A DNA stretch of 64,000 nucleotides, taken from IMG/VR virus record IMGVR_UViG_2974801466_000001, positions 10,197-74,196 of that record; one strand, written 5' to 3'. The translations under genes were made by a program, and so were the position numbers. The stretch is from Haloferacalesvirus Serpecor1 (lineage: Duplodnaviria; Heunggongvirae; Uroviricota; Caudoviricetes; Thumleimavirales; Hafunaviridae). The notes under the pieces were generated by a model. It worked only from the letters and a program-made list of their open reading frames with translations, did not search any database and was not told the DNA's origin. Below are positions 19,468-63,663 of the stretch, in pieces (position 1 is the first letter of the stretch; every line of letters begins with the position of its first letter).

Positions 19468-19522
19468 TAAGACTTAATTCGGTATCTTTAAGTCCTTAGT
19501 GGCCGTCTAATAGAGTGAGGAG
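19468..19522 (+). promoter_or_regulatory. Conserved promoter cassette copy 2 (rightward), drives nrdJ
   Basis: TAAGACTTAattcggtatcTTTAAGtccttagtggcCGTCTAATAGAGTGAGGAG. Inverted relative to copy 1, forming a divergent promoter pair. Confidence 0.55.
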
Positions 19523-19561
19523 CTTCGTGACGAACGGAGTGACCCCACTCGAATATCCATA

Positions 19562-19602
19562 CCCCGTATTACCCACTTAGGGTAGTACGGGGTGTTTTTC
19601 AC
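19562..19602 (+). terminator. 13-bp hairpin followed by T5 tract in the nrdJ leader (attenuator or terminator-like)
   Basis: ccccgtattaccc-actta-gggtagtacgggg followed by tgtttttc. Confidence 0.3.
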
Positions 19603-19706
19603 TCTAAGTAAACCGCTTAGGAGAGGGTAGGATAGAAGACAAACCCCTCGATGTAGTGAATCACTCCGAGTAGTCCACCTACTATATTACTATACTATAC
19701 AGCAAA

Positions 19707-22425: not shown

Positions 22426-22638
22426 ACACCGTGGGTATATAAAACGGGGGGTGTCAGTCAGGGTTTTCTTTCAGCCAGCCCGATTGTGGAAACTTGGTGT
22501 TACAAGTGCGGCATACGGGGCTATACCCCCTATTTATTTATAAGTAGGATTGTTAGTAGGAGGTACAGAGGCACGCAGAAGGGGTTGTTCCCGGCAAGGT
22601 TAGCCGCTTTCAGGGCCGTAGGCCCTCTCGGTAAAGCG

Positions 22639-22685
22639 CGTCCTTGGTAAGGACGAGAGCGGGGGTTCAAATCCCCCCTCAGGCT
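22639..22685 (+). other. 3' portion of a tRNA-Thr(GGT)-like gene (anticodon stem-loop to acceptor 3' strand); candidate attP core
   Basis: cgtcc-ttGGTaa-ggacg anticodon arm, ggggg-ttcaaat-ccccc T arm, ctcaggc acceptor 3' strand. No matching 5' acceptor or D arm upstream. Lies directly upstream of the integrase. Confidence 0.45.
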
Positions 22686-22901
22686 TTCAGCCTTCACGGG
22701 GCTTCTCACCCCATTTTGCGTGCTTCTTGGACACGAAACAATGCGAACCAAGAAAGCACTCTACCCACAAACGGCCACCCCCGCGCCGTCTTGCGATTCC
22801 GTGAACTGTCAGGACACTATAACTCTGAACCCCACGCGAGCGCGTATCCTCAACGGTGGTGTCCCGGCTTGAACCGCAACGACCCACTCGACAGCGTGGA
22901 A

Positions 22902-24065
22902 ATGAGCGCGGCATCCGAGGATATACCACCTGCGCCCGAACCCATCGAGTTTGGCTTCCCCCTCGTCAGCAAACGGTCGCGCGAAGACCTCGAAGCGTTC
23001 GGCTTCAACATGGTAGACGACTACCACGACTTCAAAGAAGAACTACTGACGTGGCTCGGCAACTACGGGAAAAACCCCGAAAAGTACGAAGGACTCGCCC
23101 GCACCACGCTTGAGAGTACCCACTACAAGCTCGAAACAGTCTTCCGCTGGCTATGGAAGTACGAAGACCAATACACCACCAACTTCACGCCCGAACACGC
23201 GGATAAGTTCATCTCGCTGTTGAATCAAGCCGACTCGATGATTGACAGCACCGTACTTCACCACGCGAAGGACATACGCCGGTACTTCCGCTACTGTAAC
23301 CACACGAAGGGCAAGAACTACGATTGGGAACCCGACGTGGAACTAAGCCAATCGAACGGAGGAGACGAGCGAGACTACCTCCGACGCGCCGCGTTCGAGC
23401 CGCTGTATCAAGCCGCGCTCAACCACTCGTCGGTCAAAAGCTACTACTCCTGTTCACCAGAGGAACGCACCGAGCTGAAACGATACATCTCTCAGCTAAA
23501 GAAAATCCCAATGGAAAACATCGGGGCCGAGGAGTTCAAGAAAGCAAACTCGTGGAAGTACCCGTCCATGATAGCCGTGACCTTAGACACAGGACTCCGA
23601 CCCATCGAGGTCGGACGCGCCAAGGTGTCGTGGGTGAACCTCCAAGATAACGAACTGAACATCCCGAAGGACGAGTCCACGAAGAACGAGGGACATTGGA
23701 ACTGCTCGATTCAGGGAACAACCGCAAACGCACTCGAACGGTGGCTGAAAGAGCGAAAAGCGATAGACAAGTACGACGGTCGGGACGAGCTATGGCTCAC
23801 GCAGAAGGCCCGCCCCTACAACTCCGACTCGTGTAACGGCCTGCTTGACCGAATCATCGAGTCTGGGAACGTCCCGATTCCCGAACACCGGGAGGACGAA
23901 GTATCGTGGTACAGCATCCGCCACGGAGTCGCTACGTATTGGGCGAACCACGTCGGCCCCCACCACGCGAAAGAACAGCTCCGGCACAAGTCGGTCACGA
24001 CGACGATGAAATACCTCCACTCAGACCCCGACACCCGAGGGAGCGCGGTCGAACAAATCTGGTAG
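22902..24065 (+). CDS. int: Tyrosine recombinase / integrase (probable start MSAASED at 22902; the ORF-table start 22644 overlaps the tRNA fragment)
   Basis: Catalytic residues: R in GLRPIEVGRAK, R-H in YSIRHGVATYWANH, and RHKSVTTTMKYLH with the Tyr nucleophile. Confidence 0.85.
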   Translation: MSAASEDIPPAPEPIEFGFPLVSKRSREDLEAFGFNMVDDYHDFKEELLTWLGNYGKNPEKYEGLARTTLESTHYKLETVFRWLWKYEDQYTTNFTPEHADKFISLLNQADSMIDSTVLHHAKDIRRYFRYCNHTKGKNYDWEPDVELSQSNGGDERDYLRRAAFEPLYQAALNHSSVKSYYSCSPEERTELKRYISQLKKIPMENIGAEEFKKANSWKYPSMIAVTLDTGLRPIEVGRAKVSWVNLQDNELNIPKDESTKNEGHWNCSIQGTTANALERWLKERKAIDKYDGRDELWLTQKARPYNSDSCNGLLDRIIESGNVPIPEHREDEVSWYSIRHGVATYWANHVGPHHAKEQLRHKSVTTTMKYLHSDPDTRGSAVEQIW

Positions 24066-24067
24066 CG

Positions 24068-24550
24068 TTACGACGCAACCTCCGCGACCGACTTCAGCCC
24101 GCGCTCGTTCAAACGGTACTCCTTCTTTCGACCGTCCGTGTCGTGGGGTCGCTTCTCCATCACGCCCCTCTCCGAAAGCTCCCATAGGATTTGGCTCACG
24201 TCGTCCGGGTCTATCTCGGAGTCTTCATCCAACTCCGCTTTGATTTCCGTCGTCGTGTGCCACTCGTCGCCGTTGTTCTCGTAGAGGAACGTGGCGAGCT
24301 TCCGCGTCCGTGACCCTTCCTCGAAGGTGACTAAATCCATCCCACCCCCATCCGTCTCTCCATTCACCTCAATTTCCTCTCCGGTGATGTATTCCGTGAG
24401 GTCGATTGGGGACTCCGCCTCGATTGTCACCCTGATGTTCTCGATGGATTCGTTGAATCCGACTTCCTCCATGAACGTATTGAACGCATCGAGGGATTGG
24501 TCGCCCGACAGTTCCAGAGTCATAACTCCGTCTGATTGACTTGACGACAT
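24068..24550 (-). CDS. Acidic protein with C-terminal winged-helix DNA-binding domain (candidate lysogeny or transcription regulator), 160 aa
   Basis: C-terminus WHTTTEIKAELDE...ILWELSERGVMEKRPHDTDGRKKEYRLNERG resembles a wHTH. Convergent with the integrase. Confidence 0.4.
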   Translation of the reverse strand: MSSSQSDGVMTLELSGDQSLDAFNTFMEEVGFNESIENIRVTIEAESPIDLTEYITGEEIEVNGETDGGGMDLVTFEEGSRTRKLATFLYENNGDEWHTTTEIKAELDEDSEIDPDDVSQILWELSERGVMEKRPHDTDGRKKEYRLNERGLKSVAEVAS

Positions 24551-24669
24551 AATCCGAGGATTCGCCGCCCCATCTGAAAAAGTCCGTGGCTCGTCACCTT
24601 ACTAAAACAAAAAAGACCCCCGACCACGGGGGGTCGGGGGTGGCAAACACTACTGTATCTTTAGAACCG

Positions 24670-24960
24670 CTACGCCGACGCTGGCTTGTTCTGCTCGCTA
24701 TACTTCCAGAACTCAGTTTCCTCAGAGTGTAACCGAGCGTGGTCAGCCGCCGACATGAGACTCAGATTCGATGGTCGGTTGTCCCACCGAACTCCGTTGA
24801 GGTGGTGAACTTGATTCTGACACACAGCCTCGAAGCCATGCTCCGCGACCATGATTAACCGATGAATCGCAACCTCCTTCTGGACGCCCTCGTACTCGTT
24901 CGTCGCTATCTCGTAGCCGTGATGCCAGCAATGTCCTGCTGGACTTCTATCGGAGGACAC
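24670..24960 (-). CDS. HNH endonuclease, 96 aa
   Basis: HH-LNGVRWDNRPSNL...H-ARLH (HNH signature with the DNRxxNL core). Confidence 0.7.
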   Translation of the reverse strand: MSSDRSPAGHCWHHGYEIATNEYEGVQKEVAIHRLIMVAEHGFEAVCQNQVHHLNGVRWDNRPSNLSLMSAADHARLHSEETEFWKYSEQNKPASA

Positions 24961-24961
24961 G

Positions 24962-26326
24962 TCACTTCTTGAAGTTCATCACGGGCTTGAGGCGGTCAAC
25001 GACCCGCGCCGTGGGTTCCAGATTCTCCTCGATGAGTTCCATCGGCTTGTAGGCTTCCGGCACTTCGTCGCCGGGGACGACCGCCGAGTACGTCCCGTTG
25101 TCGTACATCCGCTTGCGGGTGGCGTCGGCGTCGAACTGCTCGTGCGCCCATCCACGGGAACCGAGTCGGCCCGCACCGTGGGGAGCCGAGTAGTTGTAGT
25201 CGGGGTTCCCGCGTCCCTGACAGAGCAGAGTACCGTCCTCCATGTTCATCGGGATGGCGAACAGCTCACCGTCCTGAGCGCGGGTGGAGCCTTTCCGAAT
25301 CACCATATCCTCGAAGTCCACGTAGTTGTGCGGGGAGTCGAGGAACTTGTTGATAGACGCATCGAGGGTTTCGGCCACCTCCTGAATCATCAGCAGGCGG
25401 TTGAAGCTCGCGTAAGTCTGAGCGAGCATCATATCGTAGTAGTACCCGTAGGCTTCGCGGCCTTCGAGGTAATCGAGGTCTTTGTTCCGGTCGGCGTCCG
25501 GGGAGTAGGACTCAATCTCGGAGCCGATACGTTCGATTTCCTCGCCGTCGTTGTAGAGGCGAATCTTCTCCCAATCCGGGGAGCCGTCGCGGTTCGTGTA
25601 GTGCTTCAACCGCTCGCCCATCTCGCCCCACTTCACGTCGGCGTCACGGTGTTCGGTCGCCTTCGCCTGCCAGTACGCCGCGACCTTCTGACCGAGGTTC
25701 CGCGACCCGGAGTGAACGACTACCCACAGGTCGCCGGACAGCTCGGACTCAGCAATCTCGATGAAGTGATTACCGGAACCGAGCGTGCCGAGGGAACGGA
25801 GCGCGTATCTCTTGCTGATTCCGACGCGCTTGCACATCTTCTCGAAGTAGTCCGGGCGGAACATCCCCTCGTCCCGGTTCTCGTAGTCGAAGTCCATCGC
25901 GTCGTAGAAGTAGAGTAGCTTCTCGTTCACCTTCCACCACGGGAACGACCACTCAAGTTCGACCGGCGGCTCCTTGTGAGCGCGACCCGTCCCCATCGGA
26001 ATCCGGTCGCGTACCTCCTTGTTCACCTCACGGAAGTCGTCTATATCGGATGGGTGGTCGGCGGTCGATACATCGAGGCGGGCCGCCGTCATACCGCACC
26101 CAATGTCGCCCCCGACCGTCTTCGGAATCACGCGGTCGGTCAGCGGCATCGAGAACCCGACGATACACGCAGGCCCGAGGCCCCCGTGACAGTCCGGCAT
26201 GAACTTCACCGGGTTCTGGAACGCCTCGTGGTCAACCATCTCCTGTATCTCGTCACGGAGTCCGTCTTCCACTTCTTCTTCTGGTAGGTGTACCTCTGCT
26301 GTCGTACTGTTTCCTTCTACAATCAT
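24962..26326 (-). CDS. rtcB: RtcB-family RNA 3'-phosphate ligase, 454 aa
   Basis: NYSAPHGAGRLGSRGWA, HNYVDFED, and metal-ligand Cys/His (CHGGLGPACIVGF, GNHFIE). Confidence 0.85.
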   Translation of the reverse strand: MIVEGNSTTAEVHLPEEEVEDGLRDEIQEMVDHEAFQNPVKFMPDCHGGLGPACIVGFSMPLTDRVIPKTVGGDIGCGMTAARLDVSTADHPSDIDDFREVNKEVRDRIPMGTGRAHKEPPVELEWSFPWWKVNEKLLYFYDAMDFDYENRDEGMFRPDYFEKMCKRVGISKRYALRSLGTLGSGNHFIEIAESELSGDLWVVVHSGSRNLGQKVAAYWQAKATEHRDADVKWGEMGERLKHYTNRDGSPDWEKIRLYNDGEEIERIGSEIESYSPDADRNKDLDYLEGREAYGYYYDMMLAQTYASFNRLLMIQEVAETLDASINKFLDSPHNYVDFEDMVIRKGSTRAQDGELFAIPMNMEDGTLLCQGRGNPDYNYSAPHGAGRLGSRGWAHEQFDADATRKRMYDNGTYSAVVPGDEVPEAYKPMELIEENLEPTARVVDRLKPVMNFKK

Positions 26327-26540
26327 TAGGTCTGTTTAGATAGAGTGTATAACTCTGAGTGTTCTACTACGGTACTGTCTTAGTTGAGTGAACAACCCTC
26401 GATGTGGTAAAACTCAAAGTAGGTAACTAACGGTAGTAAACTACTAAGAGTATATATCTAAGATAGATATTTCGCCCGCGTTATGCGCTCGCGCGAGCTA
26501 ATTCGGATGTTTCGTCGTATAGTACCAGACGGTACTATAT

Positions 26541-26567
26541 GACTTAAAGATGCCGATTTAAGTCTTT
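26541..26567 (-). promoter_or_regulatory. Promoter cassette copy 3 (core only), leftward toward rtcB
   Basis: GACTTAAAGATgccgatTTAAGTCTTT. Minus strand reads AAAGACTTA, 10 nt, TTTAAG. Confidence 0.45.
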
Positions 26568-26572
26568 AAGGA

Positions 26573-26785
26573 CTACTGTGGTGGCTTCAAGAACCGGAGC
26601 GGAACCGACCACGAACCCTTCAAGAACCACACGAAGAACCACGGATAGACGAACATCGTCGCCAGCATATTCAGAAGCGAAACCACCAGCACACCATAGA
26701 ACGCTACCTCCAAGAACAGAAGCAGGAACGCCTGAATCGTGAACCCGAGGTAGAACGAGTAGATGTAGGTGTTAGCTGTCTTCAT
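26573..26785 (-). CDS. Small membrane protein, 70 aa (two hydrophobic helices)
   Basis: Hydrophobic stretches FYLGFTIQAFLLLFLEVAFYGVLVVSLLNMLA. Confidence 0.4.
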   Translation of the reverse strand: MKTANTYIYSFYLGFTIQAFLLLFLEVAFYGVLVVSLLNMLATMFVYPWFFVWFLKGSWSVPLRFLKPPQ

Positions 26786-27039
26786 TTATTCCCGAAGTTG
26801 GTGTCGTTCATCGGAACGCAAGAGAGGCCGCCACCTTCGTAAGCGACCGAAGCGTAGCAGACGACACCAGCTTCCCGGTCGATGAATCGGTCAACCGACT
26901 TCTGATTATCCTCGTAGACCTCCGTAGCGTCAGAGGCGTTTGCTTTAATCGGGGACTCCTCAGGCTGTTCAGCAACACAGCCAGCGAGAGTAATAGTCGA
27001 TACAACCGCAAGTATCAGTAGAATCTTTCTAAAGTTCAT
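26782..27039 (-). CDS. Putative secreted lipoprotein, 85 aa
   Basis: Signal peptide MNFRKILLILAVVSTITLAGC with a lipobox-like LAGC. Start overlaps the stop of the upstream gene. Confidence 0.45.
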   Translation of the reverse strand: MNFRKILLILAVVSTITLAGCVAEQPEESPIKANASDATEVYEDNQKSVDRFIDREAGVVCYASVAYEGGGLSCVPMNDTNFGNK

Positions 27040-27218
27040 TCTTCGATTGGTCTGGTGTGGTAGTTAACGCCGTGGTAGCCGGTCGTCGGAATCGGCTGGT
27101 CGATACGCTCGATGAGCGGCCACGGAAGCTCGTACCGCCCGAACAGGTAGCCGCAGACGTTTCCGTTGTGGTCAGTTATCGCTCGAACCTTCGCGTCGTC
27201 GGGAACTTCCAATTCCAT
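27036..27218 (-). CDS. Hypothetical small protein, 60 aa
   Basis: Translationally coupled ORF. Confidence 0.3.
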   Translation of the reverse strand: MELEVPDDAKVRAITDHNGNVCGYLFGRYELPWPLIERIDQPIPTTGYHGVNYHTRPIEE

Positions 27219-27334
27219 CGGTAATCGTTTCGTCTCCGGGGTCTTCGGGGTTCACCGTCCCGAGGTATTCGCCGTTCAATACAACGTCCACCCACTCGTC
27301 GTGGGTTCCCATAACCGGGGGACTCTCTCCCACG

Positions 27335-27547
27335 TCACACCTCGATAACTCCGATTCCAACGTCCACGGTCGGCGGCCAATTGAAATTCTCGTCGTTCTT
27401 CAACCGGACGTAGTGGGCTACGTTGCCCTCTTTTGTCCAGTAAAAGTCCGTCACGTCGTAGTGGTATGACTGGTCTTGGAATAGAGGTGGAAACTCGAAG
27501 TCAGAATCAGACGGCTCCGTGACCACCTCGATGAGTCCTTTCGTCAC
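27335..27547 (-). CDS. Hypothetical small protein, 70 aa
   Basis: ORF, acidic. Confidence 0.3.
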   Translation of the reverse strand: MTKGLIEVVTEPSDSDFEFPPLFQDQSYHYDVTDFYWTKEGNVAHYVRLKNDENFNWPPTVDVGIGVIEV

Positions 27548-34117: not shown

Positions 34118-34229
34118 GGTAGCGGGCGCTTCTTTTCTGAACCACGTAGTAATCGTCGTTCGACTCGGGGTTCAGGTAGTTGAACTCTTTACCGCATTTC
34201 GTACAGTTGTGAGGTAGATTGAAGTCCAT
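34029..34229 (-). CDS. Small zinc-ribbon protein (start MDFNLPHNCTKCGKEF; about 66 aa)
   Basis: CTKCGK...CKGCAPFG Cys pairs. ATG overlaps the TAA stop of the upstream peptide (TAATG). Confidence 0.35.
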   Translation of the reverse strand: MDFNLPHNCTKCGKEFNYLNPESNDDYYVVQKRSARYRGATASVVYCKGCAPFGNTKIPSQLGLDE

Positions 34230-34231
34230 TA

Positions 34232-34357
34232 GTGAATCCGAACGAGGCCCCAACAGTTGCGGCACTTCGTCGCCCACGTCTCTCCATCGTGGTGAGAGGG
34301 GCTGATTTCCTCCTTGTAGTAGTCTTGCTCCTCCGGGGAGCAGTCGCAATGACTCAT
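34232..34357 (-). CDS. Small Cys-rich peptide (MSHCDCSPEEQ...CRNCWG; about 41 aa)
   Basis: Internal Met of ORF 34229..34483. Its start codon abuts the Cas4-like stop at 34357. Confidence 0.3.
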
Positions 34358-35373
34358 CAGTAGGGATACCAGTTCTTCGTTCGCTTGTGGTTCGTTATCT
34401 CGTCCTTCGGCTTCGTGGAGCCGTCCGGTTCCGCGAATCCGTGGTAGCCTTCGCCGCCCTTCTTCCCCCACGTCGAGGCACACTCATCGTAGAAGAAGCA
34501 CTTGCCGTGACCGTAGTGGCAGAGCGGGCCGGTGTTCAGGTCGTAGTTTTCCTCGGTCGGTTCCATCTGCATCCCGAGGACGGCCTTTCGGATGATGTGT
34601 CGGCGGTCTTCGTCCGGGTAGGGACTGACGACCAGCTCATCCTCTTGCGGATAGTACCCGGCGACCCCGGCGATTTCGTAGTCGAGGTCGTTCTCGAACA
34701 GCCACCCGTAGAACTCACCTTCGAGGTAGATTCCCTTGTGGCGGTACTTCGGGTCTTGAACCTTCCCGGTCTTGTAGTCAACTATGACCACACCTTCGTT
34801 AGCCTCGATGCCGGGGACGGTCGCGGCGTGAAGCAGGGCGTCGGCGTACCCCATCCACGGAAGCTTCCCGATGGGAATATCGTCGCCTTCGAGCCGACCT
34901 TCGACCTCCACCCCGAGGGGGAGCCACGCATCGAGGGCGTACTCCATCACGGTCTTCCCGTCACGGGGGTCGTCCAGAGCGCGGAACTTCGCGGCGGCGT
35001 AGTCGCAGGCCAACTCCCACCGCTTATCCTCGAACTTCCAGAAGTTCGCAATATGGGGGTGGAGCCATTGCGCCCAATCCTCCCACGGCCCCATCAACTC
35101 GGCATACGTCTCGGGACGCTCGCCGTGTTCTTCGACGTACTCGATGAGGTTCAGGTGGAACGTCTCATACGCCCGGTGAATCTGACTCCCCTTCTCCGTG
35201 TGGTAGGAACCGGGCGTCCGGTTGTCCATCCAGTAGGAATATAGAAACTTCCTTGGACATTGGAGGTACGTCTTGACGCGGGACTTCGAGATGTGTTCGA
35301 GGCCGTTCTCAGCGTTCTCGTCGGGAACGGTCAGGTCGATTTCTCGCCCGTCGTCAGTTAGTGCCTTGCTCAT
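34357..35373 (-). CDS. Cas4-like / RecB-family PD-(D/E)XK exonuclease with FeS-type Cys cluster, 338 aa
   Basis: N-terminal LQCPRKFLYSYW, catalytic VVIVDYKTGKV, and C-terminal CHYGHGKCFFYDEC. Confidence 0.75.
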   Translation of the reverse strand: MSKALTDDGREIDLTVPDENAENGLEHISKSRVKTYLQCPRKFLYSYWMDNRTPGSYHTEKGSQIHRAYETFHLNLIEYVEEHGERPETYAELMGPWEDWAQWLHPHIANFWKFEDKRWELACDYAAAKFRALDDPRDGKTVMEYALDAWLPLGVEVEGRLEGDDIPIGKLPWMGYADALLHAATVPGIEANEGVVIVDYKTGKVQDPKYRHKGIYLEGEFYGWLFENDLDYEIAGVAGYYPQEDELVVSPYPDEDRRHIIRKAVLGMQMEPTEENYDLNTGPLCHYGHGKCFFYDECASTWGKKGGEGYHGFAEPDGSTKPKDEITNHKRTKNWYPY

Positions 35374-35587
35374 CTTCCAGTACCTCGACGTGTTCGGTTA
35401 TGTCCATCGCGTGAAGCTCTCCATCTCGTGTTTTGAACTCGATTACCGCGCGGTCTTCCCCGGCGGCCCGGCGGAGAATATCCATCAGAATATCCTTCGT
35501 TTCCTGAGGGAGTCCGACGCTCACGAGAACAGCGCCTCCGCTTGGTTTTTCATCTGACGGGGTTCCGGGCTGAACACCCCCTCCCAT
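35354..35587 (-). CDS. Hypothetical small protein, 77 aa
   Basis: ORF overlapping the Cas4-like start by 20 nt. Confidence 0.3.
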   Translation of the reverse strand: MGGGVQPGTPSDEKPSGGAVLVSVGLPQETKDILMDILRRAAGEDRAVIEFKTRDGELHAMDITEHVEVLEDEQGTN

Positions 35588-35678
35588 TTCTTGTTCGTCG
35601 CTTTCGCTTCCTGTATTGACCGCTCGATTTCGAGTGCGAGCGCGTCAATCTCGTCGTGTAGGTCTTGGTCTTCTTCGT

Positions 35679-36053
35679 TCATCGTAGATTGCTGGCGAGA
35701 TTGACGTAGCCGAGACGGTCACGGTAGTCGTCCTCGTTGTAGTCACCGCCCTGCGCTCGGGCGAGTTTGAACAACGCCATCATCTCCGCCACGTCAGAGG
35801 CGGTTAGTTCCCATTCGAGTCCGTACTGAATCGAGAGGTAGGTTGACCAGTACGCGGCGATTCTATCGAAGGAATCCTCGGGAGCGCCGTGGGTTTCCGA
35901 ACGCCCCTCGATGATTTCCTTCGCTTCTTCGAGCAAGTCTCCGTTATTTATCTCGTCCATGTCGTACCCGGTCGTATTTGATTTCGTCCACGTCCATTCG
36001 AGCGTGGTCGGTCGGTTCTTCACAAACCGGACACTCCATCTCGGTCTGTTCAC
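35679..36053 (-). CDS. Hypothetical acidic protein (likely start at internal MDEINNG, about 93 aa)
   Basis: ORF. The N-terminal part overlaps the upstream gene's 3' end. Confidence 0.35.
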   Translation of the reverse strand: MNRPRWSVRFVKNRPTTLEWTWTKSNTTGYDMDEINNGDLLEEAKEIIEGRSETHGAPEDSFDRIAAYWSTYLSIQYGLEWELTASDVAEMMALFKLARAQGGDYNEDDYRDRLGYVNLASNLR

Positions 36054-36330
36054 CCCTGTCTCGCTGGCTGATTACGTCCGTCTCGAACGCTTGGCACTTG
36101 GAACACCGATACCGGAAGGCGTCCTTGATACCGCGAACTTGTGACCGGACGATTCGACCGCCCTGAATCTGCTTGAGGCCGTTCTCGTAGTAGAACTTGA
36201 CCGTCCCATCAGGGAGGTTCATCACATCGAGGACGTTCTCGTACTCTTTGAAGTTCGAGAGATTGCCGTCGTCGTCAACCTGAGCGAGATGGATGTTATG
36301 GCTGATTCCGTCTGTTCCGAAACTCATCAT
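35944..36330 (-). CDS. Zinc-ribbon protein, 128 aa
   Basis: CSKCQ...CPVCEE Cys pairs. Confidence 0.4.
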   Translation of the reverse strand: MMSFGTDGISHNIHLAQVDDDGNLSNFKEYENVLDVMNLPDGTVKFYYENGLKQIQGGRIVRSQVRGIKDAFRYRCSKCQAFETDVISQRDRGEQTEMECPVCEEPTDHARMDVDEIKYDRVRHGRDK

Positions 36331-36345
36331 TATGGTGGAGGGCGC

Positions 36346-36696
36346 TTACTCGTCGTCCTGTGCGAAGTACCCGGAGTGCTTGCCGTCGCGTTCTCCGAGC
36401 AGTTCGAGGTCGCCGCGCTGAAGTCTGAGGTAGACGCCGAAAGCAGACTCCTTGAGTCCTTCCAGAATCTCGATGAGCTGTTCGTCCTCGTCGCCTTTCG
36501 CCATGAGAATCCGCTCATCGAGGGCGTTGCTCAGCTTGAGTGCCCCCGACTTGTAGGCGTCCAACTCCTGATGGGCCGTCTTAATGTCGCCCACGAGGTC
36601 TGCCAGCGACTCCTCCTCACCGCCGATTTCCACGGTCGTCTCGTTCATCAGGCGTTTCAACTCGGCAGTCTTCTCTGTTGGGTCAGTCATGTCCAT
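36346..36696 (-). CDS. Hypothetical coiled-coil acidic protein, 116 aa
   Basis: ORF. Confidence 0.4.
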   Translation of the reverse strand: MDMTDPTEKTAELKRLMNETTVEIGGEEESLADLVGDIKTAHQELDAYKSGALKLSNALDERILMAKGDEDEQLIEILEGLKESAFGVYLRLQRGDLELLGERDGKHSGYFAQDDE

Positions 36697-36697
36697 A

Positions 36698-37123
36698 TTA
36701 GATACCTCCCGCTTCAGCGTTGACGCGACCCGCCGCTTTGGGGTCGTTCACGATTTCGTATGTCGGTCGCCCTTCGTCGCAGATAAGACCGCACTCGGGA
36801 CACACCGGCTCTCCGGTGTCAATCTTCTTCGCGGCTTCCTCACAGTCCGGGCAGGTGAGGGTTTCCTCCGTCACCTTCTTCTTGAGAACTCGGCCTCTCG
36901 GAGCGTCGTGGGCTACGGGAATGAACTCGTCGTAGTAGCCCTCCATCAGCTCGCCGTTAATCATCCGTCCGGGGTGGTAACAGCGGAGGTGAGTGGGCAT
37001 CCAGTCGTACTCGGTTTCGAGTGCGAACTTGTGAAGCGCCCAGTAGTCGTGGATTTCAGGGCCGCTTTCGATGGTAGTGGTGTCAGCTCTTGGCTTGCCG
37101 AAGAACTCGTCTTTGTTGTCCAT
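36698..37123 (-). CDS. Zinc-ribbon protein, 141 aa
   Basis: CPDCEE...CPECG Cys pairs. Confidence 0.4.
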   Translation of the reverse strand: MDNKDEFFGKPRADTTTIESGPEIHDYWALHKFALETEYDWMPTHLRCYHPGRMINGELMEGYYDEFIPVAHDAPRGRVLKKKVTEETLTCPDCEEAAKKIDTGEPVCPECGLICDEGRPTYEIVNDPKAAGRVNAEAGGI

Positions 37124-37208
37124 TTAATTTCCTGCTGGTGTTACTGCTAAGACTCGTCGGACTATGCTTAACTCTTTGTAAAAGACTCGGCGCTAAGTCT
37201 TCGAGTCT

Positions 37209-38387
37209 TTACGGCTGATACTGAACGTCGTAGAGCCACGTCAGCGGCAGAGAGTCAGAGACGCCGTGAATCGTCGCACCCGGCATCGACCACTCGCTGA
37301 TGGATTCCTCGAAGTCGCCCGGCGGCTTGATGGAACCGGAGCGAATCACGGGAACGTTCATCACGCGGTCAACGCCCTGCGTGTGGTAGTGCCCGGCGTA
37401 GGCAATCTCGAAGTTGTGCTGAAGGAGCCATCCTCTCCAATCTCGCTTCGCCGCCGCCGTCCCGATGTGTTCCGCCGCGTTCTGTCCGTGGCGGATGTGA
37501 GCGCGGTGTCCCCGAATCTCGAAGTTCGTGAACCCGGTGCGCTCGTTGCGGATGAAGGTGATGTTGTCGTACTCCGACGCCCGAACCACCGCATCGAGCA
37601 TCCGGTACACAATATCGTCGCCGTTCGCCTTCTGACTCGAACCGTTAATCCGAATCTCGCCGTGGTTGCCGGTCTGACACACGACCTGAACGGCGTCGAA
37701 GTTCTCCGCGAGCGTCCGAATCTGCTCGAAGTGGACTTGGGCCGCGAGGTCTACCTGCTCGTTGAAGTTCAGTTCGACCTCCCACGCCTGTCCCCAGTAG
37801 ATACCGGAGCCGGTGATAATGTCGCCGCCCATCACGTAGTGAACCGTGTGGAAGTCCCACCCGGCCTTCCGCTGGCGCTCAATCAGTTCGAGCGTCTTCT
37901 GCGTCCGGTAGCGAATCCGCTCAAGAGCGATTTCGGTGTTGAAGACCTCGTTCCCGAACTCGTCTTCGAGAACGTCGCCAATGTGGTCGTCCGTGACGTG
38001 AATCACCACGTCTTCCTCACCACCCTCGGAGAGCGGGACGGCGCTGATAGCGGGTTCCGTGTTGTTCAAGACTTTATCGAGGCGCTTCGAGAGCGACCCG
38101 GCGGCCTTGTTCAGCCGCTTCGTCTTCGTTGCCTTCGTGGTCGAACCGTACTCGCGGGTCTTGTTCTGGTTCGTGGGGTGTTCCTTCTCCGTGTCCCGCA
38201 TATACGCCTCGACCTTCCCCTCGATGCGTCTTTTCGCAAGGGGAGCGCCCTTGCGCTCGATACTGCTGATGTGGTCGCGGGCGGTAGACTCGGAGAAGCC
38301 AAACTCCTCGGAGAGCTGAGCGTAGCCAGCGGGCAGGTGGTCGATGATTTCCAGTTCAGTAGGTGTGAGGTTCTGTTCGTAGTTCAT
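37209..38387 (-). CDS. N-terminal wHTH fused to Mre11/SbcD-like calcineurin-type phosphoesterase, 392 aa
   Basis: Metallophosphatase motifs VIHVTDDHIGD, YVMGGDIITG, CQTGNHGE and YAGHYHTQG. N-terminal LTPTELEIIDHL...STARDHISSIERKG HTH-like segment. Confidence 0.75.
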   Translation of the reverse strand: MNYEQNLTPTELEIIDHLPAGYAQLSEEFGFSESTARDHISSIERKGAPLAKRRIEGKVEAYMRDTEKEHPTNQNKTREYGSTTKATKTKRLNKAAGSLSKRLDKVLNNTEPAISAVPLSEGGEEDVVIHVTDDHIGDVLEDEFGNEVFNTEIALERIRYRTQKTLELIERQRKAGWDFHTVHYVMGGDIITGSGIYWGQAWEVELNFNEQVDLAAQVHFEQIRTLAENFDAVQVVCQTGNHGEIRINGSSQKANGDDIVYRMLDAVVRASEYDNITFIRNERTGFTNFEIRGHRAHIRHGQNAAEHIGTAAAKRDWRGWLLQHNFEIAYAGHYHTQGVDRVMNVPVIRSGSIKPPGDFEESISEWSMPGATIHGVSDSLPLTWLYDVQYQP

Positions 38388-42552: not shown

Positions 42553-42783
42553 TTGTTGTAGTTGGGTTTCTCTGGTTCTGGTTATCGGTCGGTACGAAGC
42601 CAGCTACGGCATAGGTATTTGCGCCGTAGAAAGTCTGGACGGGCGGAATCGAACCGCCCTTGGGAGGTTTACAGCCTCCGCGTTCGCCTTGAACACGTCC
42701 AGAAATGGCCTATGATTGGGGGTGTCCACACCGCGTGAACGGGAGTGGCTACAAAGGTACGGCCAGCACCTCGCGTAGCCAAG

Positions 42784-42856
42784 CGCCGAGGACAGGACTC
42801 GAACCTGTGACTACGTGGTTAACAGCCACGCGCTCTACCAACTGAGCTACCTCGGC
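42784..42856 (-). tRNA. tRNA-Asn (anticodon GTT)
   Basis: The reverse complement folds canonically: acceptor gccgagg/cctcggc, D arm gctc-agttggta-gagc, anticodon arm cgtgg-ctGTTaa-ccacg, T arm acagg-ttcgagt-cctgt, discriminator g. Confidence 0.9.
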
Positions 42857-46205: not shown

Positions 46206-46262
46206 AAAGACTTAGAATCGGTATCTTTAAGTCCTTAGTTGCCGTCTATTAGAGTGAGGAGT
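46206..46262 (+). promoter_or_regulatory. Promoter cassette copy 7 (rightward), drives 46443..47383
   Basis: AAAGACTTAgaatcggtatcTTTAAGtccttagttgCCGTCTATTAGAGTGAGGAG. Confidence 0.55.
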
Positions 46263-46442
46263 TCTTCCGGCTCTACTACACAGTATAGTACCTACTACTC
46301 TACTCTAACTACTCTGATAACACCCTGTTAGCTAAAGAGACTCGATGTAGTAAACTACTCTTAGTAATACACTTAGTAGTTATACTCTTAGTTATACTGT
46401 TAGGTCAGTTATCGGGGAACTCTACCTCTGAGATGATTCTAA

Positions 46443-51556: not shown

Positions 51557-53353
51557 TTATCGCCACGGTGCGGCTTCCGGGTCGCTCCAATGCTCCGGCG
51601 GTTCGTCCCGAATCGCCTCGGTGAACCATCCCGGCGGCTTCGTCCGGTTCATCAGCTTGTTGAACGCCCCGTCGATGACGTAGTACGACGCGGCTTCACT
51701 CGGTTCAGGGCCACGGACGGCTCGCCCCACGGACTGCTGAACGTCGAGGGAGGCCGACTCCATATACCACGTCCAGTCGTTCCGCTCATCGAGCAGGTAG
51801 GACACTCGACTGTCCCCGAGGTACGGGTAGGGAACCTTCAGGAGAACCTGCCAGCGGCAACGGTCGCCGTGGAGGTCAACTCCCTCCATCATCGACGGGG
51901 AGATGAGAATGTCCTTGTCGGAGTTAACCCACTCCTCAATCATCTCCACCTTGTCTTTCTCTTGGTCTTGAACGATAGCGTTCGCGCTCCCAAGAGACTC
52001 CCCAAGCTTCTCTGCTCGCTTGTAGGAGTTGGTGTGAATCAGCCCCTTCTCGCCTTTGTGGTGGCTGTTAATCTCGCGGATGGTGTTCACGACCTTGTTC
52101 CAGTTGCGTTCCTCTCCGTCGCCGCTCATCGAGCCGACGATAGTGTTCGTGTGAATCAGTCGGTGTTCCTCGGGGAACGGCATCGTCCGGCTAATGAGCT
52201 TCGTAGAACCTTCGAGGCCAATCCGGTCGGCCCACTCTGCGATGTTCTCCCGGTAGGGAATCGTAGCCGACGAGATAACGCGCTTCCGGCCACGGCTCCA
52301 AATGAACCGTTCGAGGAACTTGTCCACGTCAACGGGACTGACGACCATCTTCTTCTGCCCGGACTTCCCGAACTTGCTGACGGTGACAGTCCACGGTCGG
52401 TCTTCCTTCACCTCTTGGTGACAGTATTCGACCTTCTTGATGAAGTCCTTACATTGGTCAACCTCGGCCTGCCGGTTCGGGTCTTCGTCGTGGCGGTCAA
52501 CGAAGTTCGTCGCTCGGTCGTAGAGGCTGTTGAGGATGGGCGTAATGTCCTCGAACCGCTCGAAGTCCCACGAGATTCGGTCGCCCGTGTTCCGGTAGAC
52601 CTCGTTCGGGAGAACCCACGGCGAGATAGTGAACCCCGCGAACAACGAGGCGACTTGGCTTTCGAGGCCGTGTCCCTCGTCCACAATCACGAGGTCGCGG
52701 TCGTCAAAGGAAATCTGTTCTTCCTGAACGTCGTTCACCATTATCTTCGTTGGGAGGTAGTTGTCCACGACGAGCATTGCGAACGTGAGCGCCGCCATAT
52801 CGTCGCTCATCGCCCGGTCTTTCGCTCGCCAGTAGGTACATCCCGCAATCGTTCGGCAGGATTCTCCCTCCGTTTCGTCGGCCAGCGTACAGTCCTTACA
52901 GTTGTCGCCGCTGGCTCCGCAGATGTAGTCCTGCCGGGACTTGAGCATCGTGAGATACGCCTGAAGGTCTACGTCCTCGGCAAGCTGATTCCGAAGCTGT
53001 TTCTGAGGGGTCGTGTAGAAGGACTTGCCCGACTCGATGCCGTAAAGCTTGTAGTTGAAATGGTCTTCAAGACGACGCTTGTTCTTTGCGAGGTGAGAGA
53101 AAACGCGACCGAGAGTGACGTTGATAGGAGACTTGCCAATCCCGGTCGGCCCGTCGATTACGACGTTCGTGTGACCCTCGATGAACAGGGCTTCGAGAGC
53201 ATCCTTGAGGATTTCATCTTGGTACTCTCGGTAGCCGGGGAACGGGAACAGTTCGTCAGCGAGGTCGAAAAGGTACTCGCGGAGTCCGTCCCTGTTCTGT
53301 GAGTAGTTGGCTAACGGTTCGACTCTCTGGTTTTGTATTGCTGTTGTTGACAT
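51557..53353 (-). CDS. SF2 helicase of the XPD/Rad3/DinG type with 4-Cys FeS insertion, 598 aa
   Basis: Walker A GPTGIGKSP, 4-Cys cluster CGASGDNCKDCT...CRTIAGC between Walker A and B, DEGH box LVIVDEGHGLE, C-terminal helicase motifs (QSVGRAVRG). Confidence 0.7.
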   Translation of the reverse strand: MSTTAIQNQRVEPLANYSQNRDGLREYLFDLADELFPFPGYREYQDEILKDALEALFIEGHTNVVIDGPTGIGKSPINVTLGRVFSHLAKNKRRLEDHFNYKLYGIESGKSFYTTPQKQLRNQLAEDVDLQAYLTMLKSRQDYICGASGDNCKDCTLADETEGESCRTIAGCTYWRAKDRAMSDDMAALTFAMLVVDNYLPTKIMVNDVQEEQISFDDRDLVIVDEGHGLESQVASLFAGFTISPWVLPNEVYRNTGDRISWDFERFEDITPILNSLYDRATNFVDRHDEDPNRQAEVDQCKDFIKKVEYCHQEVKEDRPWTVTVSKFGKSGQKKMVVSPVDVDKFLERFIWSRGRKRVISSATIPYRENIAEWADRIGLEGSTKLISRTMPFPEEHRLIHTNTIVGSMSGDGEERNWNKVVNTIREINSHHKGEKGLIHTNSYKRAEKLGESLGSANAIVQDQEKDKVEMIEEWVNSDKDILISPSMMEGVDLHGDRCRWQVLLKVPYPYLGDSRVSYLLDERNDWTWYMESASLDVQQSVGRAVRGPEPSEAASYYVIDGAFNKLMNRTKPPGWFTEAIRDEPPEHWSDPEAAPWR

Positions 53354-53618
53354 TTCTTAGAAGGTTCTGGTCAGCTCGTCAATAGCCGGGGCGACCAACT
53401 CCCGACGACGCCCCACCGTAGGGCGTTTCGCCGTTATTCTCGCCACTCCCGCCGCTCTATGTCGATTATCTCAGACACGTCACGGCGGGGCTTCGTCTTT
53501 CCACGACGACGCCAACACGCCTTCCTCCGAAGGGAGTAGAAGTAGTCGTAGTCAGATTGCTCTATCTTCTCAATATCTTCTTCCATAATACCGTAGTGAC
53601 ACCGCAGGATGTTCGCCG

Positions 53619-62109: not shown

Positions 62110-62629
62110 TCACTACTGTCGTGGTTTACTTAGCGAGGGTCTTAGACCCTCAAAGCATCAATCCTCGTTAATTCGAGGTAGCTTACGCTGGAACCTTTCT
62201 GTCTATCCTTCCCCGCCCCTTACGGGACGGGCCGAACATACTAACGAGCGTTTTAAACGTGACACACATCCCTTTAGGCCGACTGCTATACGCGCCGCTA
62301 TGTGACTGATTCACTATGCGGAACTTCAAGTCTCAAAGAGTCTTTCGCGTTAATCGCTATGAGCTAAGCTCTTGACTACTACGTTCGTCTCCCTACGAAC
62401 CTGTTTATGGCATAGACTTTCGTACCATAGGCTAAGCACCTATTGTTTTAACCGCAACCGCAACCGAAAGTGGGTGGGATTCACGTTTCCATAGATGTAT
62501 CTAATACATCCGGTTCGACAGCTTCGAGACATTAATGCTCGATGCGTCTATTTTCGTCACTCTTTGCCCTAAGGGTCGCTCTTTGTTCGGGCCATACTCC
62601 CCCTGTAACCTGAAAATACACACCGTGGG

Positions 62630-63520: not shown

Positions 63521-63620
63521 AAGGGTACAAGCCTCGATGCGGTAAAACACGGTAAACGGAAAAGAGGCAGATATACCGGAATATGGGTAAGGGTAGGGGG
63601 GCGGGGAGACGGGCCGGGAC

Positions 63621-63663
63621 TGGGAGAGACGGGGAGAGACGGACGGACGGGGAGAGACGGACG
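63621..63663. repeat. Tandem GGGAGAGACGG(-ACGG) microsatellite
   Basis: tgggagagacggggagagacggacggacggggagagacggacg. Confidence 0.6.

Follow-up and report, generated by a model that had tools for sequence, protein, structure and literature searches.

The rtcB unit of Halorubrum virus Serpecor1: a predicted RNA ligase gene with a conserved leader and a putative selfish HNH endonuclease insert

The closest described counterparts of the locus analyzed here are the rtcB genes of the HF1-group haloviruses (HF2 HrrHF2_430, HRTV-5 gene 47 and HRTV-8 gene 44), which have been annotated and discussed (PMC7230728, PMC8707807, PMC8651126). A fragment lying upstream of the HF2 gene (37273–37330, named IR4J or IR4.5) is reported to have promoter activity and a mapped transcription start site when tested with a reporter plasmid in Hfx. 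volcanii (PMC8707807), and in this element a 9-bp inverted repeat replaces the gamma motif (Russ, Pfeiffer and Dyall-Smith 2021, PMC8707807). According to the same paper, HF2 rtcB is also carried by an 18-kb transcript that starts at IR3, and therefore the rtcB unit is not strictly autonomous. With regard to function, phage RtcB proteins have been read as RNA repair enzymes (PMC7824862), and viral tRNA repair has been suggested for RtcB (PMC8651126).

The DNA that we analyzed (the window) is a stretch of 64,000 nucleotides of Halorubrum virus Serpecor1, corresponding to nt 10197–74196 of MN901521.1. Its RtcB, HNH protein, promoter repeat, hammerhead and tRNAs were already annotated in GenBank and published. 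The HF1-group viruses have this gene at an identical genomic position, with 88–100% amino acid identity, and those loci show no essential difference from Serpecor1 in promoter repeat, leader and terminator; the HNH insert is an extra that Serpecor1, HRTV-8, HRTV-14 and HRTV-17 have over the other HF1-group rtcB loci. We consider it likely that the region forms one self-contained unit, made of an IR4.5-type promoter, a conserved leader, rtcB for RNA upkeep, a terminator and a selfish HNH insert. This unit is largely ordinary and known, with a leader that is unusually conserved but apparently unstructured. The features are listed in Table 1.

Table 1. Position of the features discussed in the text (coordinates of the window).
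Feature	Position	Strand	Remarks
Terminator-like hairpin	24606..24641	-	10-bp GC hairpin followed by T6GT4; closes the RtcB(-HNH) unit
HNH_3 endonuclease gene (HrrSp1_225)	24670..24960	-	96 aa, free-standing; Pfam and PHROG matches
rtcB (HrrSp1_230)	24962..26326	-	454 aa, 3'-phosphate/5'-hydroxyl RNA ligase; annotated in MN901521.1
Predicted 5' untranslated leader	26327..26521	-	~195 nt, nearly invariant throughout the genus
Repeated motif GTTTTACCACATCGAG (CTCGATGTGGTAAAAC on the + strand)	26398..26413	-	Copy within the rtcB leader
AT-rich CTTAGTAG/GTTAGTTA boxes	26421..26450	-	Resemble the direct repeats in the bidirectional promoter region that precedes HrrSp1_425
Palindrome GTCATATAGTACC-GTCT-GGTACTATACGAC	26514..26543	.	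In place of the usual gamma motif
Class I intergenic repeat, alpha and beta motifs	26541..26572	-	Homologue of HF2 IR4.5
Hammerhead_II	53366-53433	-	39.1 bits, gathering score 37; annotated in MN901521.1

The product of the long ORF matched the Pfam RtcB profile (PF01139) over its full length, with an E-value of 2.3e-55 and 189 bits (cut-off 27), residues 32–453 covering profile positions 7–425 of 426, and it also matched phrog_1075 (406 bits, E 3.5e-121). A profile-to-PDB alignment placed Asp74, Cys77, His187, His205 and His333 on the metal ligands D95, C98, H203, H234 and H329 of the Pyrococcus horikoshii enzyme, and His383, the predicted nucleophile within the APHGAGR motif, on H404, the His of the HGAGR motif that accepts GMP covalently. 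These six residues were invariant in an alignment of 20 sequences. The AlphaFold (AF2) model of the protein (pLDDT 88.1, pTM 0.87) recovered 16 significant matches in a Foldseek search of the PDB, every one of them RtcB or RTCB, the best being 4DWQ (E 4.7e-21, TM 0.67). The intact APHGAGR motif and metal-binding His and Cys residues described in the initial annotation are thus borne out by the profile, the residue alignment and the model, and the mutated catalytic residues that it had named as grounds for doubt did not appear, every catalytic residue being kept. We therefore take the ORF to be a genuine RtcB with a complete predicted GTP/Mn2+-dependent active site. It shares its fold, all the metal ligands and the His nucleophile with the canonical enzymes (P. 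horikoshii PH1602, human RTCB), but its sequence identity to them is only ~20% (phmmer, 40 bits) and it belongs to a divergent subfamily common to the chromosomal RtcBs of haloarchaea and to many bacterial and phage RtcBs. Its score stayed under the cut-off of each NCBIfam RtcB model (108 bits against NF007153, cut-off 407; 72.6 bits against TIGR03073 release_rtcB, cut-off 271.8); the protein is a member of the RtcB family that falls outside the named NCBIfam equivalog subfamilies.

Each of the 41 haloferacalesvirus records compared has the gene in a syntenic location, and the gene order PolB-ThyX-Dcd-RtcB-[variable]-integrase-Rnr was found in these records as well as in metagenomic relatives, whose RtcB proteins are 57–63% identical to that of Serpecor1. 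The Hafunaviridae-like RtcBs form a clade of their own. A homologue was detected in 623 of 50,697 phage records, a scan of GTDB genomes gave homologues that are mostly bacterial among the matches listed, and a scan of IMG/VR found no relatives beyond the genomes already compared. The viral protein is only 39% identical to the chromosomal RtcB of Halorubrum luteum, a housekeeping enzyme, while the housekeeping orthologues of haloarchaea are 70–84% identical among themselves, even across genera. Because of this low identity, we take viral rtcB to be an old viral gene and no recent pick-up from a host. Together with the complete synteny, this answers the concern, voiced when the locus was first annotated, that the gene might be a recent host acquisition lacking conservation.

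The most likely role of RtcB, to which we give a roughly even chance, would be to preserve the integrity of tRNAs and of other RNA components of the translation apparatus while infection proceeds. Such upkeep would consist in mending RNAs cleaved by metal-independent host RNases, in the manner of T4 Pnkp/Rnl1, or in backing up the host RtcB. RNA repair or tRNA maintenance by the viral enzyme is plausible, and the analogy with T4 Pnkp/Rnl1, together with the literature on phages (PMC7824862), makes a role in counter-defence a reasonable proposal. As in the case of T4 Pnkp/Rnl1 facing the PrrC anticodon nuclease, and of the phage RtcB and Rnl ligases (PMC7824862), a viral RNA ligase occurs alongside viral tRNA genes, and the expected logic, the repair of nuclease-cut tRNAs, would be common to T4 and Serpecor1. 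The chemistry differs, since RtcB seals 3'-P and 5'-OH ends directly via GMP, with no end-healing enzyme. For Halorubrum, we know of no cognate host nuclease, and the analysis revealed neither such a nuclease nor an RNA target of the ligase. Archease, RtcA or other RNA-repair partners were not found among 30 larger uncharacterized proteins of the early and middle regions (the scan covered those of about 100 aa or more), and PADLOC, in which neither RtcB nor the wHTH protein encoded at 24068–24550 nor the metallophosphatase had a match, returned only a weak, generic one for the HNH protein.

A second explanation, which we regard as unlikely although it has the most in its favor after the one just given, is that RtcB is an auxiliary housekeeping gene and not a counter-defence gene. 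It would then supplement or replace the host RtcB in the splicing of intron-containing tRNAs and in rRNA maturation while host expression declines. The divergent subfamily to which the viral protein belongs also includes the chromosomal RtcB of Halobacteria, which is inherited vertically and a representative of which (P0096, one of the orthologues compared above) lies in a housekeeping context. Moreover, Serpecor1 and its kin carry tRNA genes, some relatives encode the ribosomal protein L21e (PMC8651126), and two HF1-group proviruses have no rtcB (PMC7230728), suggesting that a host able to supply the function makes the gene dispensable. On the other hand, no intron-containing viral RNA was seen, and both viral tRNAs are of normal length. 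Repair and housekeeping rely on one and the same chemistry and cannot be told apart from sequence alone; as the viral enzyme shares the divergent subfamily of the housekeeping haloarchaeal RtcB with only ~39% identity, either repair or housekeeping back-up is possible.

Expression of rtcB would begin when the host RNA polymerase starts at the class I repeat of the IR4.5 subtype, whose beta motif TCTTTAAGTC (26541–26550) contains the TATA box. A BRE lies just upstream of this motif and the alpha motif TTAAAGACTTAAATCGG further upstream. The exact beta motif occurs seven times in the window, in seven class I repeats; when these were aligned, alpha, beta and gamma were found in common, and the alpha motif of the rtcB copy aligned with the others. 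The standard gamma motif CGTCTNNTAGAG is absent at the rtcB promoter, where a palindrome takes its place. The HF2 fragment 37273–37330 is the homologue of this promoter and has a near-identical sequence, with alpha and beta motifs, an inverted repeat instead of gamma, and the same site upstream of rtcB; activity and start site were measured for HF2 only, and the Serpecor1 promoter is predicted from its sequence. Transferring by homology the start site of the HF2 reporter construct gave a predicted start at about 26512–26527, a placement no better than about ±8 nt, which the palindrome overlaps. This palindrome has 13-nt arms that are 92% complementary, its hairpin has a z-score of −4.76, and in relatives the loop alone varies while the arms are retained or lengthened. 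It is probably an operator, standing where the gamma or initiator motif would be, and probably binds a dimeric regulator. The GTACC..GGTAC palindrome that the initial annotation had assigned to the leader is present, but it belongs to the published promoter element IR4.5 (PMC8707807).

From this promoter, transcription would cross the leader and rtcB and end at a GC hairpin followed by a T-run. This hairpin was detected by a scan for terminators, and its folding gave an MFE of −24.2 kcal/mol and a z-score of −3.99. It is kept in all the relatives, and in viruses that have no insert it lies directly 3' of the RtcB stop codon.

Upstream of rtcB there is a non-coding stretch of 246 bp (26327–26572), most of which would be transcribed as the leader. 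A leader of ~195 nt is plausible given the homology with the mapped start site of HF2 IR4.5; the available text of the report on that element (PMC8707807) does not discuss the ~195 nt downstream of the repeat. Among 11 viruses, the leader had a mean pairwise identity of 95.9%, with 88% invariant columns, and in the same comparison the RtcB gene had 95.0% identity at codon positions 1 and 2 and 81.9% at position 3. By this measure, the predicted leader is about as conserved as RtcB codon positions 1 and 2. A long leader with palindromes and a repeated motif had been noted before, and the non-coding stretch, the palindromes listed and the motif are indeed there; that the leader is structured did not hold up. 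The MFE of the whole leader had a z-score of −0.64, and 47 of 200 shuffled sequences folded at least as well. RNAalifold, run on nine sequences, gave a covariation term of +1.11, a value to be read knowing that with 88% invariant columns the variation is too low for a firm negative, and the positions that do vary disrupt both the GC and the ATATCTA hairpins. When the palindromes were folded one by one, only that at 26514–26543 and the terminator exceeded their shuffles, and the former overlaps the promoter and start site, outside the leader body. Rfam had nothing for the leader when the whole window was searched at the gathering threshold, and gave only a chance hit (E 1.9) for 26250–26650 at E ≤ 10. 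Thus, the leader is not demonstrably structured. A bulge-helix-bulge splice site that would make the leader a substrate of RtcB was also considered and rejected, because the predicted 3x3 internal loop, inspected by eye, is not of this kind.

These results bear on the idea that the conserved leader is a cis-regulatory RNA adjusting the translation of RtcB, be it as a riboswitch-like element, as an attenuator or through an upstream ORF; we think this rather improbable. Long 5' UTRs are unusual in haloarchaea, and the conservation of this one, close to that of codon positions 1 and 2, would fit such a function. A long-range helix of ACUUUGAGUUUUAC with GUAGAACACUCAGAGU is possible, and the distant relative L013 has an apparent compensating change (GTAAAAC with GTGTTAC); this was seen by eye in an uncertain alignment, and we do not claim the helix. 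Reading of the sequence also revealed a 19-codon ORF initiated by TTG inside the leader, where no sense-strand ORF of at least 20 aa was found. Against this idea stand the z-score and the lack of an Rfam match, as well as the positive covariation term, with few substitutions that break the predicted pairs. In addition, the leader motif recurs in three other intergenic regions beside unrelated genes, the AT-rich boxes resemble a promoter region with a reported mapped start, which favors a function at the DNA level, and some distant relatives have no long leader at all. It seems most likely that, instead of a folded RNA, this segment, conserved at the level of the primary sequence, provides DNA or RNA sites for protein binding and perhaps a second promoter.

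The repeated motif matched eight places of the window with at most three mismatches, against 0.43 expected. Four copies are intergenic (19647, 26398, 46341 and 63533), and each reads GTTTTAC.. on the minus strand. In four distant relatives (L012, L013, L033 and L034), a related core, CAYYGAGG(G)KTKT, lies upstream of RtcB. The HF2 homologue of the copy at 46341 occupies positions +12 to +26 relative to the start site reported at T-17064; as to a possible role of the motif as a second initiator, this start site, the one mapped near a copy, sits 11 nt upstream of it and not inside. A local alignment of the RtcB leader with the leader at 46.2–46.4 kb had a score of 40. The notion of a repeated leader module was discarded: apart from the IR, the AT-rich boxes and the short motif, the three leaders of ~190 nt (those of Rnr, RtcB and HrrSp1_425) have nothing in common. 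The HF2 segment 37361–37444, which covers the AT-rich boxes, was cloned as a candidate promoter of the complementary strand, 'IRKc' (Russ et al., Table S1), for which the available text of Russ et al. gives no result.

A GTG located 1 nt past the RtcB stop codon starts the HNH gene, and a single terminator hairpin with its T-run follows the two genes. The initial annotation placed the HNH gene directly downstream of rtcB and in the same operon, and this spacing and the common terminator agree with that; the HNH gene is predicted to be co-transcribed with rtcB. Its product matched Pfam HNH_3 at residues 31–76 (E 7.8e-11, 41.9 bits, cut-off 24.8) and phrog_7545 (E 2.9e-25), and the His-His...Asn...His motif is legible in the translation (VHHLNG...DNRPSNL...DHARLH); the profile searches proposed earlier recovered the named family for both this protein and RtcB. 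Alignment of 11 viruses showed that the gene is the cargo of an insertion of ~300 bp, at about 24652–24961, which has clean edges and lies between the RtcB stop codon on one side and the conserved terminator on the other. Full-length copies occur only in Serpecor1, HRTV-8, HRTV-14 and HRTV-17 (six records), and the other 35 of the 41 related records lack them; as to whether related haloviruses conserve RtcB next to HNH, RtcB is conserved in all of them but the HNH neighbor is not. In the relatives, the slot that follows the rtcB stop codon is empty or holds unrelated small ORFs or a LAGLIDADG gene, and a GIY-YIG gene is found one small ORF beyond it. The nearest homologues of the HNH protein, in HCTV-5 and HVTV-1, belong to a Que gene cluster away from RtcB. 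Because of this patchy distribution, the insertion site, the other occupants of the slot and the homologues elsewhere, we consider the HNH gene to be a putative selfish, free-standing homing endonuclease insert and no functional partner of RtcB. The cassette would have slipped in behind the rtcB stop codon and ahead of the terminator, borrowing the promoter and terminator of rtcB, and would be dispensable for RtcB function.

The free-standing homing endonucleases of phages (T4 seg/mob, HNH_3 enzymes of the I-HmuI type) resemble this gene in being small, promoterless ORFs wedged between conserved genes, patchy among close relatives, in a slot also taken by other endonuclease families. The Serpecor1 protein differs in being very short and in having no recognizable DNA-binding domain, unlike HSTV-3 gp55, which combines an HTH with HNH_3; homing is predicted from the genes. 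The slot enclosed by the stop codon of rtcB and its terminator is a hot spot for cargo, having received HNH, LAGLIDADG and two unrelated small ORFs.

It had been proposed that RtcB, HNH and a structured leader constitute one RNA-repair counter-defence module, with, for example, DNA of the host or of competitors as the target of the HNH protein, RNA mended by RtcB, and the leader RNA as a damage sensor. The 1-nt spacing, the common promoter and terminator, the strong conservation of the leader among the 11 viruses and the existence in jumbo phages of Rnl2 ligases fused to HNH domains (Iyer et al., PMC7824862) are in line with this proposal. Nevertheless, we consider it very unlikely, and it is largely refuted by the distribution of HNH: the 35 records that have no HNH gene do have RtcB, the leader and the terminator, and the HNH gene, an insertion found in four viruses, occupies a slot whose contents vary. 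Neither do its closest homologues adjoin RtcB, nor does the leader give a signal of structure.

Equally hard to credit is that the leader and the GTTTTACCACATCGAGG element of four minus-strand intergenic regions represent an undescribed regulatory device, RNA or operator array, through which the state of the RNA in the cell sets the expression of RtcB, or, in a related version, that viral RtcB acts on hammerhead-cut transcripts. The least probable of all, and purely speculative, is that RtcB religates or circularizes the hammerhead-cut transcripts of the virus as a means of regulation: the type II hammerhead detected in this virus, upstream of the helicase gene, would yield 2',3'-cyclic-phosphate and 5'-OH ends, a chemistry that fits RtcB substrates, but hammerhead and rtcB are 27 kb apart, in separate transcription units, with no genomic linkage. 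In HF1 and HF2, 13 nt separate the hammerhead from the start codon of the helicase downstream, and no more than 3 nt separate its cleavage site from a mapped transcript 5' end (PMC3088659).

Returning to the self-contained rtcB unit, the cargo hot spot, the conservation of the leader and the placement of RtcB in its subfamily are three modest observations that do not appear in the available text of the literature cited here. If the knockout of a halovirus rtcB gave host-dependent defects, this would be functional evidence for RNA repair in an archaeal virus, of which we know no earlier case. A leader about as conserved as codon positions 1 and 2 stands out as a candidate regulatory region worth mutating. 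Finally, the hot spot behind rtcB suggests that this gene is a likely homing target, as well as a useful marker of recombination among hafunaviruses.

The stretch from 24000 to 27500 matched Halorubrum virus Serpecor1 (MN901521.1; Hafunaviridae, genus Haloferacalesvirus, HF1 group) with 100% identity at 34196-37696 in a megablast search, so a window position equals the MN901521.1 position minus 10196; the window reaches the right end of this 74,196-bp genome. The record annotates rtcB and the HNH gene as well as a partial tRNA (attP), two tRNA genes and a type II hammerhead ribozyme. The rtcB gene of HF1-group viruses is mentioned in three papers: the Serpecor1 genome paper (PMC7230728), the HF2 promoter paper, which refers to "tRNA repair" (PMC8707807), and PMC8651126, which suggests repair of viral tRNAs. 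The core of the initial annotation, which had recognized a virus-encoded RtcB ligase, is real, yet already annotated and published.

Features of the rtcB region and related elements (window positions)
Feature	Position	Strand	Remark
HrrSp1_230, "RNA-splicing ligase RtcB"	24962-26326	-	annotated in MN901521.1
HrrSp1_225, "HNH endonuclease"	24670-24960	-	annotated in MN901521.1
Slot downstream of rtcB	24652-24961		equivalents in compared rtcB loci L002-L015
Terminator hairpin, then T6GT4	24616-24641	-	terminator scan
Winged-helix protein	24068-24550	-	phrog_20636; weak PadR and MarR-like matches
Longest mechanical ORF with tyrosine integrase	22644-24065	+	overlaps partial tRNA
Partial tRNA-like sequence	22615-22685	+	Rfam tRNA, 31.9 bits; just upstream of tyrosine integrase
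IR4.5 palindrome arms	26514-26526, 26531-26543		13 nt each
Alpha/beta motif pair	26543-26550, 26563-26570		
Class I repeat and leader, Rnr	19485-19706	+	
Class I repeat and leader, RtcB	26327-26550	-	
Class I repeat and leader, HrrSp1_425	46224-46442	+	
GTTTTACCACATCGAG, intergenic copies	19647, 26398, 46341, 63533		one orientation
Stretch without annotated gene	62023-63680		about 1.66 kb; last annotated CDS (HrrSp1_655) to terminal direct repeat
Near-perfect motif copy	63533-63548		1 mismatch; about 130 nt inside terminal repeat boundary
tRNA-Tyr (GTA)	42633-42702	-	under Rfam gathering threshold
tRNA-Asn (GTT)	42783-42856	-	
Type II hammerhead (RF02276)	53366-53433	-	39.1 bits, Rfam gathering score 37; annotated in MN901521.1
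Rad3-like helicase gene	51557-53353		12 nt downstream of hammerhead

Along its full length, the 454-aa RtcB matched the Pfam RtcB profile (E = 2.3e-55), and it also matched the phage family phrog_1075 (E = 3.5e-121). Structurally characterised enzymes are only distantly related to it (about 40 bits for P. horikoshii RtcB), and with none of the NCBIfam RtcB models does it reach the cut-off; a profile built from 20 homologues aligned with PH1602 across both halves (E = 3e-27). In this alignment every functional residue could be assigned, and none varies within the family: the metal ligands D74, C77, H187, H205 and H333 (D95, C98, H203, H234 and H329 in P. horikoshii), N186 and E190 (N202 and E206, to which GTP binding is attributed), the guanylylated nucleophile H383 in APHGAGR (H404) and the C-terminal lysine K453 (K480). 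No catalytic residue is mutated, in agreement with the motifs having been described as intact. The AlphaFold model (pLDDT 88.1, pTM 0.87) had no PDB matches other than RtcB/RTCB structures; 4DWQ (RtcB-GMP/Mn2+) ranked first (E = 4.7e-21, TM 0.67).

We observed rtcB at the same position in 41/41 related phage records, with 88-100% amino-acid identity among the 11 viruses compared in detail. Metagenomic relatives (57-63% identity) retain the synteny PolB-ThyX-Dcd-RtcB-[variable]-integrase-Rnr, and in a rough NJ tree they form, together with the group of the 41 records, a separate clade. A homologue from this divergent subfamily is also encoded on haloarchaeal chromosomes; the one from Halalkaliarchaeum (P0096) lies in a housekeeping gene neighbourhood, and its orthologues share 70-84% identity across Halorubrum, Haloarcula, Halomicrobium, Halorhabdus, Halosimplex and other genera, a pattern that marks the cellular enzyme as vertically inherited. 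With the Halorubrum luteum protein, Serpecor1 RtcB shares only 39% identity. Viral rtcB has therefore long belonged to the virus lineage and was not captured recently from a host. RtcB homologues were found in 623 of 50,697 phage records, mostly from Mycobacterium, Bacillus and Listeria phages, and phage RtcBs are regarded as RNA-repair ligases (PMC7824862).

The HNH ORF encodes a bona fide HNH_3 domain protein of 96 aa (Pfam and PHROG matches). Its GTG start codon lies one base past the RtcB stop codon and a single terminator follows both genes, which agrees with the proposed shared operon; the hairpin (-24.2 kcal/mol, z = -3.99) is far stabler than its shuffles. We aligned the region downstream of rtcB from 11 viruses. 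HF2, HRTV-5, HSTV-3, HJTV-1, HRTV-13 and HCTV-7 carry a conserved hairpin and T-run, GTTTGCCACCCCCGACCCCCCGTGGTCGGGGGTCTTTTTT, at most about 10 nt past the rtcB stop, and Serpecor1 and HRTV-8 have about 300 additional bp with the HNH gene exactly between the stop codon and this hairpin. HRTV-18 and HRTV-19 hold another insert in this slot (a 57-aa treble-clef zinc protein), and VOLN27B and the metagenomic locus L012 an unrelated ORF of 53-57 aa. Full-length copies of the HNH protein were detected by tblastn only in Serpecor1, HRTV-8, HRTV-14 and HRTV-17; the next-best matches (HVTV-1 and HCTV-5, 53-57% identity) belong to a longer HNH protein, which in HCTV-5, the one inspected, belongs to a queuosine-type gene cluster rather than neighbouring that virus's RtcB. 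The HNH gene therefore shares a transcript with rtcB, yet it is a mobile cassette that most relatives lack, and this distribution, with unrelated cargo or none in the same slot elsewhere, does not support the RtcB-HNH functional module that had been proposed; nor is the pairing conserved in related haloviruses. In locus L015, a LAGLIDADG endonuclease abuts rtcB (37.8 bits), and in the distant relative L013 a GIY-YIG protein lies one small ORF beyond the slot (27.6 bits); with three homing-endonuclease families at or next to it, the slot stands out as a homing hot spot. All insert-bearing slots have A(C/G)AGTAGTGTTTGCC as their right junction, and the insert-free junction differs. Other homing-type endonucleases stud the replication/nucleotide-metabolism module of relatives: an HNH_3 protein with an HTH domain after PolB in HSTV-3 (L005 5642-6070), a LAGLIDADG protein between Dcd and ThyX in VOLN27B (L011 4679-5188) and a 243-aa HNH protein after PolB in L012 (1046-1777).

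Upstream of rtcB lies a class I intergenic repeat, whose beta motif has seven exact copies in the window. According to the HF2 study (Russ et al., PMC8707807), all HF2 class I repeats are promoters with mapped start sites, and the TATA box begins at -26 inside the beta motif; IR4.5 is atypical, with an inverted repeat instead of the gamma/initiator motif and a start site shifted by two bases. The IR4.5 fragment of its primer table, HF2 37273-37330, is directly upstream of HF2 rtcB and almost identical to Serpecor1 26512-26572; the palindrome GTACC-AGAC-GGTAC, assigned to the leader in the initial annotation, is therefore the IR4.5 inverted repeat. Its full arms are 92% complementary (z = -4.76), and in relatives only the loop varies (GTCT or GTATC), the arms being retained or longer. 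Since the palindrome adjoins the TATA box and the start site is expected to fall within it, the transcript probably lacks one or other arm, and a candidate operator for a dimeric regulator would be a more natural reading than an RNA hairpin. Directly downstream of the rtcB terminator, a winged-helix protein conserved in all relatives is an obvious candidate for the palindrome-binding factor. The integrase converges on this winged-helix/RtcB block, and the partial tRNA upstream of it is attP according to MN901521.1 and PMC8707807. In each class I repeat the alpha motif CTTAAAGA and the beta/TATA motif TCTTTAAG are exact reverse complements, so that the repeat is palindromic around a 12-nt spacer. 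This may be why some HF2 repeats are reported to have weak promoter activity in reverse orientation. In HF2, rtcB is additionally covered by an 18-kb transcript from IR3 (PMC8707807), and IR4.5 thus adds to read-through transcription.

Transferring the start site from the HF2 reporter (about 26512-26527) predicts a leader of about 185-200 nt to the ATG at 26326, close to the 200 nt initially estimated. From TATA box to ATG, mean pairwise identity among the 11 viruses is 95.9% (88% invariant columns), against 95.0% for RtcB codon positions 1+2, 81.9% for RtcB position 3 and 78.8% for position 3 of the upstream TM-protein gene; the spacer past the terminator is scarcely alignable. This comparison shows strong constraint on the leader. 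The evidence does not favour the folded RNA first suggested: the minimum free energy is no better than that of shuffles (z = -0.64), neither the AT palindrome ATATCTA/TAGATAT (z = -0.11), which HF2 disrupts, nor the GC palindrome (z = +1.0), which HSTV-3 and VOLN27B disrupt, stands out, the RNAalifold covariation term is positive, and the leader had no Rfam match and no sense-strand ORF of at least 20 aa. It does hold AT-rich CTTAGTAG-type boxes resembling the region upstream of HrrSp1_425, whose HF2 counterpart has mapped bidirectional promoters (T-17064 and T-17022) within direct repeats (PMC8707807), and, as initially noticed, a copy of the repeated motif GTTTTACCACATCGAG, which is enriched in the window (8 matches, 0.43 expected). 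The HF2 homologue of the copy at 46341 occupies +12 to +26 of T-17064, and a related core, CAYYGAGG(G)KTKT, occurs after the class I repeat that precedes rtcB in the distant relatives L012, L013, L033 and L034; some other relatives have no long leader before rtcB. HF2 37361-37444, inside the leader, was cloned as a candidate complementary-strand promoter, "IRKc" (Russ et al., PMC8707807). Most economically, the leader is read as a dense region of transcriptional control that comprises an operator and possibly extra promoters and resembles other early/middle control regions of the virus in style. An action at the RNA level is still conceivable, because the leaders vary too little for a proper covariation test.

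At three class I repeats (Rnr, RtcB and HrrSp1_425), a leader of about 190 nt with one CTCGATGTRGTRAA motif copy separates the repeat from the first gene; the other four have a short leader or none, and the one at 19296(-) starts about 12 nt upstream of its ATG. The near-perfect motif copy in the terminal repeat lies where the earliest leftward transcription is expected to begin.

Serpecor1 RtcB thus has an intact catalytic apparatus, its own promoter type, a terminator and deep conservation in the virus lineage. By analogy with T4 Pnkp/Rnl1-PrrC, and because RtcB co-occurs with viral tRNA genes (here tRNA-Tyr and tRNA-Asn), it would repair breaks that metal-independent RNases make in tRNAs or other RNAs. 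Both viral tRNAs have GUN anticodons, the class attacked by some bacterial anticodon nucleases such as colicin E5, which could bear on this repair hypothesis. Among 30 larger viral proteins of uncharacterised function, none was identified as Archease, RtcA or another repair partner, and PADLOC gave no match for RtcB. A housekeeping role, in which viral RtcB would back up the host enzyme of the same subfamily, fits the data as well as repair and is consistent with two HF1-group proviruses without rtcB. Hammerhead cleavage leaves a 2',3'-cyclic phosphate and a 5'-OH, exactly the ends that RtcB joins, so a connection with the viral ribozyme, whose HF1/HF2 counterpart is published with a transcript 5' end at most 3 nt from the cleavage site (PMC3088659), could exist; it is chemically attractive but speculative. 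Three minor observations that we did not find in the examined literature on this virus group are that the leader is as conserved as codon positions 1 and 2, that an endonuclease hot spot lies behind rtcB and that viral RtcB is related to the housekeeping RtcB subfamily of haloarchaea.
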